Shown here in pieces: positions 47,901 through 56,900 of a stretch of 64,000 nucleotides of DNA. The first letter of the stretch is position 1, and each line of letters starts with the position of its first letter. Made by a program: the position numbers. Source of the stretch: Bdellovibrionales bacterium (GTDB lineage: Bacteria; Bdellovibrionota; Bdellovibrionia; Bdellovibrionales; JAUICD01); assembly GCA_965262715.1 (NCBI GenBank), contig OZ253553.1, positions 2,875,091-2,939,090 of the forward strand, in the 5' to 3' direction.

Positions 47901-50900
47901 TTTCAAAATTCTCAAATCGTTGCTTCCACCGCAAATCATTGTTCATAAAATAACCCCTATTTATCTATATCTAACTGGTTTAAGTTATCTAAAATGCGTT
48001 GATTAAGTTGGCCTTCTTTTTTTATTTGATTTTTAAATTCAGAATTTTTACGTAATTTATCAGCAACCTTAAAAAGCTGAGCTTCTAGTTTTTCTGATTT
48101 CATAATAGAACTTCCTTCCTGTACCTAAGAGGTTAATTCTTTACCCCTTAATGCCTGTAATTTCAATGTGTGTAAAGACAAAATGTAATCAAAGATCAAA
48201 TTCTAAGTCAACTTTCAAACTGGTCAAGTCTCACAATAAACAGGCTCATCTTTGAAGATTGAAAATTTGAATGCAACCCAGTCTAGTGATAGTATCAAGT
48301 CTGTGCTCAAGATAAAAGCTGATTCCAATATGGAAAAGGTTTATAACTAGAGGCGATCTCAAAAATGCTAAGTCTATTATCTAAACTTACCTTAATATAA
48401 TGATCTAGAATTTTTAGCAGATATCTGGGAGTTTCTGGAAATTTAATGTTCGAATGCATTATTTCTAATAATAGCTCATCCTGACTATCAAGGGTGCAGA
48501 ACACTAGACACAAGGCCAAGATATCTTTGTAGGTGGAACTTATTCAAACTTGGATAGATACTTAACTGGGTTTTGTACAGATCCGCAATACAATTGCGGA
48601 TCTGTATAAGGTATGTTACTATTAGGTATGGCTTATTTTCCCCGTAATATGCAAAGCAAACTTAAGGATTTAGCAAAATCTTATCCTGTTTTAGTGATTT
48701 CTGGTCCCAGGCAATCTGGCAAGTCCACTTTAGTTAAAAATATCTTTCCAAACCATCTTTATATTAATTTAGAGGATATTGATGAACGGATGATGGCAAG
48801 ACAAGACCCAAAGGCTTTTTTAGAAAGGTTTGATAAATATCGGGTGATCATTGATGAAATTCAACATGTGCCTTCTTTATTTTCCTATATTCAAGGTATT
48901 GTAGATGGGCAAAAAAAAAGCGGTCAATTTATTTTAACAGGATCGTCTCAAATGGATATTCTTGAAGGGGTTTCCCAGTCTCTTGCAGGTCGTGCTAGTA
49001 TCCTTTATCTGTTACCTCTTTGTTTTAAAGAGTTAGCTTCACAAAGTAAGCCTTCTTCTCTGGAGGAAATACTATTTTCTGGCAGCTATCCCAGCATTCA
49101 TTTTGATCACCAACCTATTGTGGATTGGTATCAAGATTATTGTCAAAATTATCTTGAACGTGATGTAAGAAGAATCACAGCAGTTAAAGACTTAGGAACA
49201 TTTCAATTATTTCTAAAGATGTGCGCAGCCAGATGTGGACAAACCATTAATTATTCTAACTTTGCTAATGATTGCGGTGTAAGTCCAAACACTGTTAAAG
49301 AATGGATGAATATCTTAGAAGCTTCCTTTATTATCTTTAAATTAAATCCCTATCACACAAATTACTCTAAAAGGCTTATTAAAAGCTCTAAACTCTATTT
49401 TTATGACACTGGTGTTGTTTGTTCTCTTTTAGGAATTACATCTCCTGAAGCTCTAATCACTCATTCAGTAAGAGGAGGGATCTTTGAAAGCTGGATCATA
49501 AGCGAGCTTAAAAAGAAATTTTATAACATTCATAGGGTAGCTCCTTTGTATTACTGGAAGAATAATCAAGGTATTGAGATAGATATTGTAATAGAAAAAT
49601 TAGAACAGTTGATGACTTTAGAGATTAAATCAGCAAAAACTCTTAACAAGGTTTTTTTTAGAAATTTAGATTATTTTTATCAGTTAGCGCAAAAGGATAT
49701 CTATGCCCAATACCTTATTTATGGAGGTGGTAGCAGGCAAGGTCAACAAATTGGAAAAACTCAAGTTCTCTCATGGAAAGAATTAAGTCACATATCTGTA
49801 GATGATTAAAAGGTTTAAATGAAAAAATTACATAAAACAATCGGCTTTGTTGCACAAAGGTTTTAGAATGAGATTTGTGACAGACTTGGAGTAAGCGTAA
49901 GGCCAGTGCCTTATGAGATAGGTTTTGTATAAGATATTTTATTCTATAATAAAATCATAAAACCAAAATAGTACATGGCACGGAGGTTGCCTGCTGCTTA
50001 TGGAAGAAGCCTGTCACAAATCTCTTGCACACAAACTAGAGTTAGTGTTTGTGCAACAATCCCAAAATGGCTTATAATTAAATAAGCTCTAAAGACTGAG
50101 AAACCTTAATCTCTATGTAACAAAACTTCTGTAAGGTGCTGATATTTTTCTTGTGTGTGGAGCGGTAAAAGTGGTACAAAGGATAAACTAGAGCAGAAAA
50201 TTCAATACATTAAGCCTTCAAAAACAAGGTCATAAAATGACAGAAGCAAAAGCCAATGTACAAACAGCAAATCAGTCAAATTCCTTTGAGCTTTCTCCAT
50301 CAGCTAAGGCTTTTATCAAGAAGGAACTAACAAGATATGAGAGCAAACGCTCTGCAGTGCTGCCAGCTTTGTATCAGGTACAAGAGGACAATGGTGGTTG
50401 GGTGAGTCAAGAGGCTGTTAGTGTTTTAAGTGAGTTTATGGAAATTCCTGAAGCACATATTAACGAAGTGTTACAATTTTATACCATGTTCAATAAAAAA
50501 TCTGTAGGTAAATACCACATACAAGTTTGTTGTAATTTGACTTGCTCTATGTTTCAAGCAAGACAACTAGTAGAGGAAACGTGTAAACAACTCAATATCA
50601 AGGAAGGTGAAATGAGTGAGGATGGTCTTTTTACAATTTCAAGAGTAGAGTGTTTAGGTTCTTGTGACAATGCGCCGGCTGTTCAGATCAATGATAAATA
50701 TTATGATAAGATAGATAAAGAAAAGATGAATGTTCTTCTAGAGTCTTTTAGATCAAATAACAATAAATAGAGAGAGAGAAAGAGAATGGATTTATTATTA
50801 ACAGAACATTATGGCAAAAAAGATTTTCATACTCTTAAGGGTTATCAGAAGTATGGTGGGTATGAGATTTTACCTAAGGCTTTTAAGATGAAACCTAAGG

Positions 50901-53900: not shown

Positions 53901-56900
53901 GATTATTTGGAGGGAGTAGAAAAATCTCTACAAAAAAAACAATTAGAAAGAGAAAATAACAATGAATTATGGCAAGCAGAGATGAAGTTAAAAAATATGG
54001 TTGCTAGTTGGAAATATGCTAATTGTAAATGGAAACAAACAGCACGCAAAAGAAGACTTGCTCTTAAACAGTGGAATCAAGTCATAGATGAATATGGGAT
54101 GGTTATATATAAGAAGAATCAAACGGTAAGTGACTTAGACCAAATAATAAATTGCTTGGACAAAGTAACAAATAATTGGGAAATATCCAAAGATGAAGAA
54201 TTATCTGCTTTAAAAAAGTTAGAACAAGCGATAGACAGTTGGCAACAGACAATTAAAAAGCTAGAGTTAGTGATCAATATTAATAAGAAGGTAAAAAAGC
54301 TAAAAAAAGAGCCCAAGATAAAGCCAATAAAACCAATAAAATCAATAAAAAGAAGATAGATAACTTTTATGGAATTTAAAGAAAAAGCAACAAATACAAA
54401 TCAGAGCAAGTCCAAAGGTGATACTTCTATTTTAAAAGGGCCTGATCTTCGAAAAACATGGTATCTGCCTGGTATTTTAAAGGGTTTATCTTTAACTCTT
54501 TCAAAGATGATTCAAAATATTTTTAATGGCGGTGAAATGCTGACATTAAATTACCCTGAAGAAAAGTACACTTATGGACCTCGTTTTAAGGGTAATCATG
54601 TTTTAACAGTCAAAAAAGATGGTTCTTTACGTTGTACAGCCTGTATGCTTTGCGCAACAAATTGTCCAGCAGATTGTATTACAATTGTAGCCTCACAGCA
54701 TGATGATCCTTCGGTAGAAAAATACCCTATTAATTATGAGATAGATATGTTAAGGTGTGTTTTTTGTGGCTTTTGTGAAGAGGCTTGTCCTGTTGACGCT
54801 GTAAGGATGGGGCCAGAATGGCAAAGTCCAGGGGTTAATGGCTCAAGCTTTATCAATAATATCGAAGAGTTAGCTTATCGGCCTGCATTAAAAGGCGGGG
54901 TACAAAGTGTTTTGGATGATAAAGATCGCATAAAAGATGGGCTTTAAAATTATTTCTTATAAGTTTAATTAGTGAAATACCGCTATAAACTCTATATGCA
55001 ATGTGTCTTTTGACTTTTATTTTGCTTTTTTTTCAAAGTTAGTTTAAGCCATTGTATAAGTGATGCCATCTAGGAAGTTGGTTTGACTTAGAGTATTTAG
55101 TTGTTTGGAGTAAAATCAAAACCAAAATTGTAGGAGCAAGCTATGTTGAATGTAAATCAATTAAAAAATTCTCTTTATATTGGAATTTTATTAGGTGTAA
55201 TGAGTCTTTCCAATTTTGTTTATGCAAGTATGGAAGTAACAGCTTATGGTGGTGGAAATTTTAATAATGAAATGAAATTAAGTAATGTTATAAATGGACA
55301 GCTTGACCAAGAATATAAAGCATGGATTGTTGGTTTTGATTTAGTTTATAGATCGATACTCTCTGATTCTAGTTGCGGTATAGGTCTTAGGTATCAGCAT
55401 AACTTAAAGAGTATGCCATATAAGGCTGGTGGCGGCGATACAGGGCAAAATTTGATGTTTAATTCTAACCGTATAGCTATTTTAGGAAATTATAGATTTA
55501 TTAATGTAGATGAAGATACAGATGCAGGGTTATTTGTAGGAGTTTTAGCTGCATGGGATGTTTTCCGTTCTATGTCAGTACAAGTAGATGCAGGTACAGG
55601 TGGAGGAATTAGTGATACCCTTGATATAACTAGCAACAAATGGTTAGGTCTAACTGGTCAAGTTGGTCTAGAAACTGGCTTTAGATGGACCAATTTCTTT
55701 GTAAGAGGAGAGGTTGGCTATAGCTATTATGGATTTAATGACTTTAAATGCACTGGTCAGGCTTGTGCTTCTTCTGAGGAGATAAATGATAGGGATTTCG
55801 GTTTATCAGGTGTCTATGGAACAGTTGGGATAGGTTGGTTTTTCATCTAAATGACTTAAATTATATAACCCAGCGAAAAGTTTTTTATGGCTCTTTAGAA
55901 AGAAGAAGAGCCATAACACTATAGGTATTAATGTTGCTTTGAAGAAAACAGATCACAATACTTCAACTTTATTTTTTAGCTTTTGAAGGTCTTATTAGGT
56001 GATATGACGAGATTCACGATAGAATATGATATCTGTGATACAACCTATCTTTAAATTGTGAGTCATTGCAAAATCTTTTAAGTCTGATGGGCGGGCCATT
56101 TCCCCATTTTTCTTTAATATTTCACAGATCACAGCAGTTGGAGGAAGGCCTGCTAGTTTAACAAGATCCATACTACCTTCTGTATGACCAGGGCGTTCTA
56201 AAACTCCATCATCTTTTGCTATAATAGGAAAGACATGGCCTGGCATGACTATATCATTTGAGGTTGATTGTGGATTTGCAAGCACTTTTATTGTATGCGT
56301 TCTATCAAAAACAGATGAGCCTGATCCAATACCTTTCGCTGCGTCTACAGTTATGGTAAAAGCTGTTTGTTGGTTATTTTGATTTTTAGATATCATAAGT
56401 GGTAACTTTAATTGATCAGCTTGTTTTTGGGTAATTGACAAACAAACTAGTCCTCTAGCCTCATGTAGCATAAAATTGATAGTTTCTGGTGTGACCAGAC
56501 TAGCAGCCGCAACGAGGTCTCCTTCATTTTCTCTTTTTTCATCATCTACCAGGATGACTATATGACCGTTTTGAATATCTTCAATCAATTCTCTTGGGTG
56601 ATTCATTTGCCTTCTTTATATGGTTTTTAGTTTAAATAAAAAGCTTCAGGTTAGAAAAAATAAGGAAAGAGAAGCTTTCTTACTTTAAATAAACCTTTTA
56701 ATAGGTATTTCAAAAATAAGCTATTATGTTTTATATCCAATAAGTATTTTAAACAACAAGAAACTTGCAATCTTTCTAGCACTACATTTACCTTGAGCCA
56801 TAAGGCAATGGAAGAAAACTTTAGGTGAAAATTCAAAACAAATGGATGAGTACCAGTCTACCAGAATACCGGATGGACAGCTTTCTGGGATATAATGAAG

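Follow-up and report, generated by a model that had tools for sequence, protein, structure and literature searches.

The window analysed here is a stretch of 64 kb from the genome of a Bdellovibrionales bacterium (G000; order Bdellovibrionales, estimated completeness 92.7%); features in it are numbered by their position in this stretch, and other loci are given as contig positions. Complex I genes were found in it at 26084-28450 and 50237-54947, all on the plus strand. The first group consists of nuoB (26084..26683), whose product lines the quinone chamber (TIGR01957, 219.6 bits against a cut-off of 142.7), and nuoCD (26714..28450; TIGR01962, 497.7 against 459.35), in which the quinone-site motifs GPSHPATHG and DRLNY are intact. 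The second is filled by nuoE (50237..50770; TIGR01958, 156.6 against 142.4), nuoF (50786..52063; TIGR01959, 600.9 against 558.65), nuoG (52156..53646), an ORF of 236 aa (53649..54359, also on the plus strand) and nuoI (54369..54947; TIGR01971, 114.5 against 113.05). The best relatives of nuoF put G000 among Bdellovibrionales. The nuoG product is a short form of 496 aa that scores below the cut-off (TIGR01973, 391.5 against 470), and since its length is also 496 aa in G007 and 491 aa in G036, it is not a truncation peculiar to G000. The 236-aa ORF matched no family in NCBIfam or Pfam, had no relative in the compared loci and gave no usable atlas match; as far as can be told, it lies outside the respiratory chain.

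With nuoMN and nuoAHJKL, open-framed and located elsewhere, all 14 complex I subunits are encoded in G000. The genome-wide survey's note had spread complex I over five sites. Four of them make up the working complex, and at the fifth lies a degenerate NuoB'D'I' module. We rejected this module as one that handles quinone: the site motifs are missing from it, G036 and G028 do not carry it (nor does the first 800 kb of G019, the part of that genome covered, where absences carry no meaning), and one genome that makes menaquinone (a maker) does. The rest of the chain comprises a diheme succinate dehydrogenase (sdhCAB), an ETF-quinone oxidoreductase (ETF-QO) and subunits I-IV of a caa3 oxidase, all open-framed, as well as an alternative complex III (ACIII) whose six genes, actABCDEF, form one cluster (contig 1224054-1236567). 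ActA is a pentaheme and ActE a monoheme protein, and ActF, which matched no family, was assigned by its position and its counterpart in G008. PutA and a type-2-like PyrD are also retained. Judged by gene content and site motifs, the quinone reductases are intact and a route from quinol to O2 is encoded. When metagenomes were scanned with ActC, close relatives were not recovered, the best match reaching 74%.

G000 retains each of the nine pocket residues that PMC5928083 names for Rhodothermus marinus ActC, and so do eight relatives at every column that their sequences cover. For NuoCD, the comparison of G000 with G036 gave a dN of 0.132 and a dS of 1.61; the dN/dS ratios of this pair (~0.03 for ActC, ~0.08 for NuoCD and ~0.05 for RpoB) are rough because dS is near saturation. 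Low ratios were obtained in three independent genome pairs, suggesting that the chain genes are under purifying selection, within the roughness that near-saturated dS imposes. The chain is kept across a clade with RpoB distances of more than 0.4 changes per site: among its nine members without MenD (the non-makers), ActC was found in 9/9, NuoD in 7/9 and SdhC in 4/5 tested. Retention is not uniform, complex I and SdhC being lost in family f8. The survey's note had allowed that the respiratory genes might be decaying relics; the cells would then live by fermentation or stolen ATP. Inserts do break up the nuo, sdh, act and cox clusters of G000, and the loss of complex I in f8 and the internal stops in cyoE of G028 could be read in the same way; yet every subunit is open and full length, and with the conserved sites, the low dN/dS in three genome pairs and retention over such distances, decay appears highly improbable.

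Biosynthesis genes were sought in G000 by six-frame profile searches and with protein queries from E. coli and Bdellovibrionales. No profile match above the cut-off was obtained for MenD, MenB, MqnA/D, UbiD, UbiE/MenG, RquA or AroC, and no ortholog was recovered with MenA/C/D/F/H, UbiH/I/J/T/U/V or AroB/F/G. The unmatched AroC profile and AroB/F/G queries bear out the earlier statement that the shikimate pathway is gone. The UbiA family gave a single match at E<=1; as had been proposed, it is a heme O synthase, meeting the cut-off for that enzyme and reaching only 61 of 275 bits with the UbiA model. The sole trans-prenyl synthase, located after xseA-xseB, is of the short-chain FPP-synthase type. 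On these searches, G000 holds no complete known quinone pathway. The classical menaquinone set (MenF, D, H, C, E, B, A and G plus chorismate supply) was not found, nor was the set for precursor salvage (MenA or UbiA with a long-chain prenyl synthase). For the futalosine route, MqnA/MqnD were absent from all 36 genomes of the census, and control genomes were positive in 4/14. From the ubiquinone, plastoquinone and rhodoquinone set (UbiA, UbiD, UbiE, hydroxylases or RquA), UbiB alone is present, as a UbiB/ABC1 protein of 564 aa (contig 1297198-1298892); the claim that no ubiquinone-route gene exists therefore stands for the ring genes but not for UbiB. Lacking the ring, an enzyme to prenylate it and a long tail, G000 would be unable to salvage even DHNA or 4-hydroxybenzoate, and it would have to take up a finished prenylquinone. 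Among the relatives, G011 alone keeps a MenA-like paralogue, which adjoins a prenyl synthase; a second prenyl synthase of G007 was rejected as a quinone-tail enzyme, as it sits in a carotenoid cluster.

To follow the loss across the order, MenD was surveyed in 151 genomes, and MenB, AroC and MqnA/MqnD in 36. MenD is present in 141/151. Nine of the ten genomes without it (G000 and eight relatives) belong to a single clade that spans four families, and the tenth is the 85%-complete G112, so that MenD is missing in just 1 of the other 142. MenB and AroC are absent in the same ten of the 36 genomes. Could these absences be assembly gaps? G000 and G036 (90% complete) are incomplete, the men and aro genes of relatives lie partly in clusters, and G112 shows that incompleteness can erase genes. 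However, the same genes are missing in nine genomes of one clade, five of which (G007, G011, G013, G028 and G008) are 98-100% complete, which argues against chance or one bad assembly and makes gaps a barely credible explanation. The survey's central claim, a quinone-dependent chain kept without quinone synthesis, is thus upheld by open reading frames, profile searches and nine clade genomes, and the trait, described as family-wide, extends further, to four families.

The clade also holds, inside or beside it, one menaquinone-making family (f9), whose menaquinone cassette is of different origin, as if regained; this is suggestive only, the MenB tree having left out six genomes of the order that scored <300 bits, including the sister family f3. 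In an AU test, the grouping of the nine non-makers as one clade was not rejected (p 0.078). The f9 cassette also bears on whether the clade might make an undescribed lipid-soluble carrier, without chorismate or a UbiA-family enzyme, that runs complex I, succinate dehydrogenase and ACIII. Known pathways are missing from many lineages, and mPQ, a new quinone, was described lately (PMC13386864); the HMG-CoA reductase of the mevalonate route is retained in G000, and annotation covers a minority of its proteome. ActC column 118, moreover, is Thr in 13/13 makers and Cys in 7/9 non-makers, a difference that could reflect a changed substrate or mere descent. Against such a carrier, the quinone pockets are unchanged, f9 appears to have regained menaquinone and no candidate genes emerged: neither profiles nor motifs brought up a second UbiA-like membrane protein in G000, which also has no UbiH/I-like monooxygenase and only 5 ORFs with a radical-SAM motif. 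Type III polyketide synthases above the cut-off were absent from G000, G008 and the first 800 kb of G019 (G000 has one match below it, E 5e-4, and G007 and G013 have weak matches above it), and ABBA prenyltransferases were found in 0/5 genomes, the controls also being negative. We consider an undescribed carrier quite unlikely.

If quinone is acquired, the timing of the loss bears on its donor. FlhA was found in 3/9 non-makers (G007, G011 and G013), flagellated, near-complete genomes of 3.1-3.2 Mb, and three non-flagellated relatives keep the menaquinone pathway. Because these flagellated relatives also lack the pathway, its loss predates genome reduction, and bacterial prey are thereby better candidates for the donor than an animal host. 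The survey's note had proposed a quinone taken from the host; dependence on outside quinone is indeed the best reading, but an animal host at its origin is improbable. Non-motile members, G000 included, might still obtain their quinone, ubiquinone or rhodoquinone, from the membranes of a eukaryotic host, the ancestral prey-fed state serving as a preadaptation. Neither a flagellum nor a chemotaxis core is encoded in G000, which has a GC content of 33.6%, many repeated IS-like genes and no synthesis of heme or riboflavin, and sponge-associated, non-motile, reduced Bdellovibrionota have been described (PMC9944714). Nevertheless, the loss is common to the flagellated relatives, G000 still carries pili and secretion genes like those of predators and no RquA was found, so that we regard a eukaryotic donor as unlikely for these members. 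Conversion of scavenged ubiquinone by RquA was likewise dropped as a candidate (0/12 genomes above the cut-off, and no control genome above it either).

The reading we favour, with good confidence on genomic grounds, is that the clade depends on intact quinone scavenged from outside; that the donors are bacterial prey or neighbours is more likely than not. Several Bdellovibrionales families would descend from a predator that was still motile when it lost both the classical menaquinone pathway and the shikimate pathway feeding it, and most members would also have lost the long-chain prenyl synthase. The menaquinone-type chain would have been kept, with complex I, the diheme succinate dehydrogenase, ETF-QO and other flavoproteins reducing the quinone pool and ACIII oxidising it, electrons passing to caa3 and then O2. 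A finished prenylquinone, menaquinone or ubiquinone, would be taken from the membranes of prey or neighbours reached by type IV pili. G000 encodes type IVa pilus machinery (PilM, PilQ, PilB/PilT-like ATPases and 15 PilA-like ORFs), and kinship and pili suggest a predatory life for the clade. Import of a cofactor is already required in G000, where heme proteins, CyoE and CtaA are retained although heme itself is not made.

Possible import routes include bulk membrane lipid uptake, Mla and UbiB-assisted transfer; no dedicated quinone uptake gene was identified in G000, Mla being generic. It is conceivable, though we hold it only tentatively, that prey quinone reaches the inner membrane of the predator by a dedicated theft route through the retained UbiB, a kinase-like ATPase; this seems likelier than an undescribed carrier. 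UbiB is also carried by 12/14 makers and is hence not specific to auxotrophy. Its retention in 5/6 non-flagellated non-makers versus 2/8 small makers was discarded as a signal, with too few independent lineages and flagellar status covered for three of the eight small makers. YceI was discarded as a quinone carrier, being absent in G000 and present in 4/5 genomes.

The quinone auxotrophs known among lactic acid bacteria live by fermentation, their chain of NDH-2 and cytochrome bd being minimal and optional, and group B Streptococcus needs both heme and quinone, a need that the heme dependence of G000 matches. Unlike them, G000 is diderm and has a proton-pumping complex I, ACIII and caa3. According to PMC10746273, quinone-auxotrophic lactic acid bacteria resemble G000 in having no complete pathway and carry out electron transfer on the quinone of other bacteria, and group B Streptococcus respires on cross-fed quinone. 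Lactiplantibacillus plantarum uses DHNA and hydrophilic quinones; G000 lacks MenA, so DHNA salvage is closed to it. Long-chain menaquinones gave L. plantarum no electron transfer (PMC10746273), so uptake of hydrophobic quinones is not trivial. Among Pseudomonadota, 70 mostly symbiotic species without any quinone pathway (PMC11707229) and, in part, Holosporales (PMC5911502) likewise have no detectable complete pathway; they are host-associated and lost ubiquinone after genome reduction, whereas the Bdellovibrionales clade lost menaquinone before it, flagellated 3 Mb genomes included. Quinone auxotrophy with respiration is already known in lactic acid bacteria and is suspected in reduced symbionts, so the novelty is lower than first claimed; for clade-wide quinone auxotrophy in predators with complex I and ACIII, we found no prior report in the literature searched.

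Other Bdellovibrionales, B. bacteriovorus among them, share the chain architecture of G000, with ACIII in 23/23 genomes, but keep menA-menC-menE, MenB, MenD, MenG and AroC; a DAHP synthase is listed with the proteins that are upregulated during growth in prey (PMC12546842). The ActC of G000 aligns over its full length with those of R. marinus (E 1e-176) and Flavobacterium johnsoniae (E 7e-172), whose ACIII-caa3/aa3 chains oxidise their own menaquinol (PMC8552683); the quinol oxidised by ACIII of G000 may be menaquinol or ubiquinol. B. bacteriovorus is reported to contain UQ-8 while having just three pathway homologs and no demonstrable pathway (PMC13386864, citing Spain 2016), and Fig. S4 of PMC13386864 already includes a Bdellovibrionia genome for which 0 and 2 pathway genes are given.

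If scavenging is confirmed, the respiratory carrier would be a prey-derived nutrient of a whole predator clade, and there would be a genomic reason to read the UQ-8 of B. bacteriovorus as prey-derived. Scavenging also suggests why these lineages are uncultured, and menaquinone or ubiquinone, plus heme for G000, would be the additions to supply. How a C40-tailed lipid gets across two membranes, and whether ubiquinone can serve a chain of the menaquinone type, are questions for which the clade would be a natural experiment. The quinone of the prey would then set the energy yield of the predator, its prey range and its obligate dependence.

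The genome under study (G000) is a single contig of 2,939,090 bases with 33.6% GC (completeness 92.7%, contamination 3.3%), and the window is its end. The closest matches of its NuoF all belong to Bdellovibrionales, the nearest at 88% and the others at 67-78%, with named Bdellovibrio strains among them; together with G036, G007, G019 and G028 it makes up family f1. The genome-wide survey's note had complex I scattered over five sites. All 14 subunits were found, encoded by 13 open ORFs, at four of them: nuoM and nuoN (contig 2603-5751), nuoA, H, J, K and L (contig 2511998-2516647), nuoB and nuoCD (window 26084-28450) and nuoE, F, G and I (window 50237-54947). 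The fifth (contig 2423585-2425663; L191:3586-5664) proved to be a degenerate NuoB'D'I' module missing the quinone-site motifs GPxHP and DRLxY. This module shows likeness to hydrogenase-related large subunits and adjoins tatBC in G000; it lies immediately after the nuo genes in G007 (L299) and ~5 kb from nuoCD in G011, G013 and G015. An orphan Lys/Trp-rich ORF of 236 aa, for which no family or relative was found, separates nuoG and nuoI (window 53649-54359).

The remainder of the chain is also encoded. Succinate dehydrogenase consists of SdhAB and a b558-family anchor carrying four conserved histidines; the diheme design is typical of menaquinone users. ETF-quinone oxidoreductase has both its quinone-binding and Fe-S domains, the alternative complex III (ACIII) cluster actABCDEF is full, with unrelated genes interspersed (contig 1224054-1236567), and the terminal oxidase is of the caa3 type, with SCO, CyoE and CtaA. 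PutA and a type-2-like PyrD are retained as well, and cytochrome bd was not found in G000. In the model we propose, electrons from NADH, succinate, acyl-CoA, proline and dihydroorotate would reduce a quinone pool, and ACIII would hand them to caa3.

To our knowledge, every known prenylquinone route needs a UbiA-family enzyme, which makes the search for this family the decisive test. A six-frame search of G000 (E<=1) gave one match, heme O synthase, in line with the earlier assignment of the single UbiA-family gene to protohaem IX farnesyltransferase. In the same genome nothing exceeded the cut-off for MenD, MenB, MqnA/D, UbiD, UbiE/MenG, RquA or AroC; of the queries taken from close Bdellovibrionales, MenA, C, D and F as well as AroB and AroF had no match, and MenE, MenH, MenB, AroA and AroK met distant paralogues only. 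The claim that no ubiquinone-route gene is present thus stands for UbiA, UbiD and UbiE, which had no qualifying match, but not for UbiB, the one remaining Ubi-family gene (405 bits, below the 487 cut-off). Isoprenoids come from mevalonate, with HMG-CoA reductase present and no orthologue of Dxs or IspE in G000, and the sole trans-prenyl synthase, encoded in an xseA-xseB context, is of the FPP-synthase type. Since ring, ring prenylation and long tail are all missing, precursor salvage is closed in this genome. The radical-SAM motif occurs in five ORFs, putatively LipA, QueE, MtaB, MiaB and RlmN. A new carrier in place of the known quinones, as the survey's note had also envisaged, seems improbable to us.

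MenD was found in 141 of 151 genomes of the order. The ten without it are the five f1 genomes, G008 and G020 (f8), G011 (f11), G013 (f13) and G112, an f2 genome that is 85% complete; among 36 chosen genomes, the same ten lack MenB and AroC. MenG fell below the cut-off in all four non-makers tried and above it in a maker control. That these absences are an artefact is very hard to credit. The retention of a chain with no quinone pathway is confirmed in G000 and widened to nine non-makers, G000 among them and G112 left aside; ActC is present in 9/9, NuoD in 7/9, SdhC in 4/5 and UbiB in 8/9. Both f8 genomes lack NuoD along with the menaquinone pathway, and G008 also lacks the b558 SdhC and holds a full ACIII cluster.

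That the respiratory genes are relics we consider highly unlikely. The NuoCD motifs GPSHPATHG and DRLNY are intact in all seven non-makers that have complex I. For R. marinus ActC, Sousa et al. (PMC5928083) single out nine residues of the pocket, whose G000 equivalents by alignment are W69, I73, F76, P123, H126, L154, D157, V235 and D238, invariant over 22 aligned genomes except for three columns uncovered in G020. The dN/dS values for G000-G036 were 0.044/1.46 (ActC), 0.132/1.61 (NuoCD) and 0.096/2.05 (RpoB), and those of G019-G028 and G008-G020 were similar, the comparison being limited to these three pairs with deeper ones saturated. Judged from these sequences, the chain is maintained in non-makers. 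ActC column 118 (G000 numbering), eight residues ahead of the pocket histidine, is Thr in 13/13 makers and Cys in 7/9 non-makers, a split that may reflect descent only.

A four-protein tree of 23 genomes joined the nine non-makers with family f9 (support 95/92), in agreement with RpoB alone; the nine as a single clade were not rejected (AU p 0.078). Family f9 is a menaquinone maker by its genes: those for prenyl synthase and the aro and men genes sit together in a block of 20 kb (L199, G009:C8:5000-24999; L335 in G037). Its MenC is of a gammaproteobacterial/Gram-positive type and its MenB groups with E. coli (100/99) in a tree without six sequences, the sister family's among them, several MenB types existing in the order. 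This would fit one loss of menaquinone synthesis and one regain in f9, possibly by transfer. MenC and MenB of f9 differ from those of the other Bdellovibrionales tested. Among non-makers, only G011 has a MenA-like paralogue adjoining a prenyl synthase, with no ring synthesis, possibly a ring-salvage state. This second MenA-like prenyltransferase of Bdellovibrionales has an N-terminal extension and adjoins a long-chain prenyl synthase (L126:14076-16099, L200:7194-9271). The flagellated f1 member G007 carries a carotenoid cluster of prenyl synthase, phytoene synthase, desaturase and lycopene cyclase (L298:5725-10443).

Three non-makers have FlhA, namely G007, G011 and G013 (3.1-3.2 Mb, 99-100% complete); the other six lack it, as do 3/14 makers. 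Menaquinone loss therefore preceded motility loss, and small genome size does not account for it, since f6 genomes of 1.2-1.5 Mb retain MenD. No flagellar genes were found in G000. This genome retains pilM-Q, ATPases resembling PilB/PilT, a type II secretion pair and 15 ORFs that resemble PilA. The PilA-like genes, of which there are at least 15, are almost identical at their N-termini and dispersed over the genome (among them contig 728857-735743, 1005365, 1185640, 1718700-1729265 and 2624084-2625581), an expansion in a non-flagellated cell.

The suggestion that quinone is taken from a host finds partial support, as to an outside supply; given the order of losses, prey is likelier than a host as the original donor. 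We favor uptake from a bacterial donor as the probable source, and a eukaryotic donor is rather unlikely. The simplest supply would be ready-made quinone drawn from the membranes of prey or of neighbours: digestion of the prey inner membrane would make MK-8 or UQ-8 available to the predator, and selection on some 15 aro/men genes may then have been relaxed. UbiB-family proteins are thought to carry quinones or their precursors in or out of membranes. UbiB is retained in 5/6 non-flagellated non-makers versus 2/8 small makers, which may weakly hint at a role in quinone transfer, only weakly because 12/14 makers also have it. MlaFED is present in G000 and YceI was not found there.

HemA, B, C, E and H were not found in G000 with E. 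coli and Bdellovibrio queries. Its heme proteins are retained, c-type cytochromes among them, as are the synthases of heme O and heme A and an ABC importer of the FecCD type (heme-related loci L443, contig 2179514-2185839, and L444, contig 2235809). Since G019 retains HemA, C, L, E and H at two loci (first half of the genome covered), heme loss in G000 would be a later event or, less likely, an assembly gap. By gene content, G000 would be doubly dependent, on heme and quinone. The ORF at window 55995-56606 is presumably RibB-like by its motifs, although neither RibD nor RibE was found in this genome. DoxX, MbnB/TglH/ChrH-family and DUF2063 genes adjoin a Fur-family regulator and exbBD-like genes (contig 1120731-1122699; L445:8732-10700). 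Upstream of tRNA-Trp (contig 2198524-2198955), four tRNA-like calls follow one another at 88-89 base spacing, each with an anticodon loop of four bases; they may be a repeat array instead of tRNAs.

PMC13386864 describes many lineages without quinone pathways and cites UQ-8 in B. bacteriovorus having only three pathway homologs; its Fig. S4 includes a single genome of Bdellovibrionia, for which 0 and 2 pathway genes are given. PMC11707229 lists 70 Pseudomonadota, mostly symbionts, without a quinone pathway. PMC10746273 documents quinone auxotrophy and cross-feeding, with long-chain menaquinones ineffective in L. plantarum electron transfer (for further comparison, see PMC5911502, PMC9944714, PMC8552683 and PMC12546842). 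No description of menaquinone loss in a Bdellovibrionales clade was found in the literature covered, which mostly excludes subscription journals. Quinone auxotrophy is already known, and the clade of G000 would work on the same principle, an outside quinone; it differs from the known auxotrophs in its chain, its cell plan and the timing of the loss.
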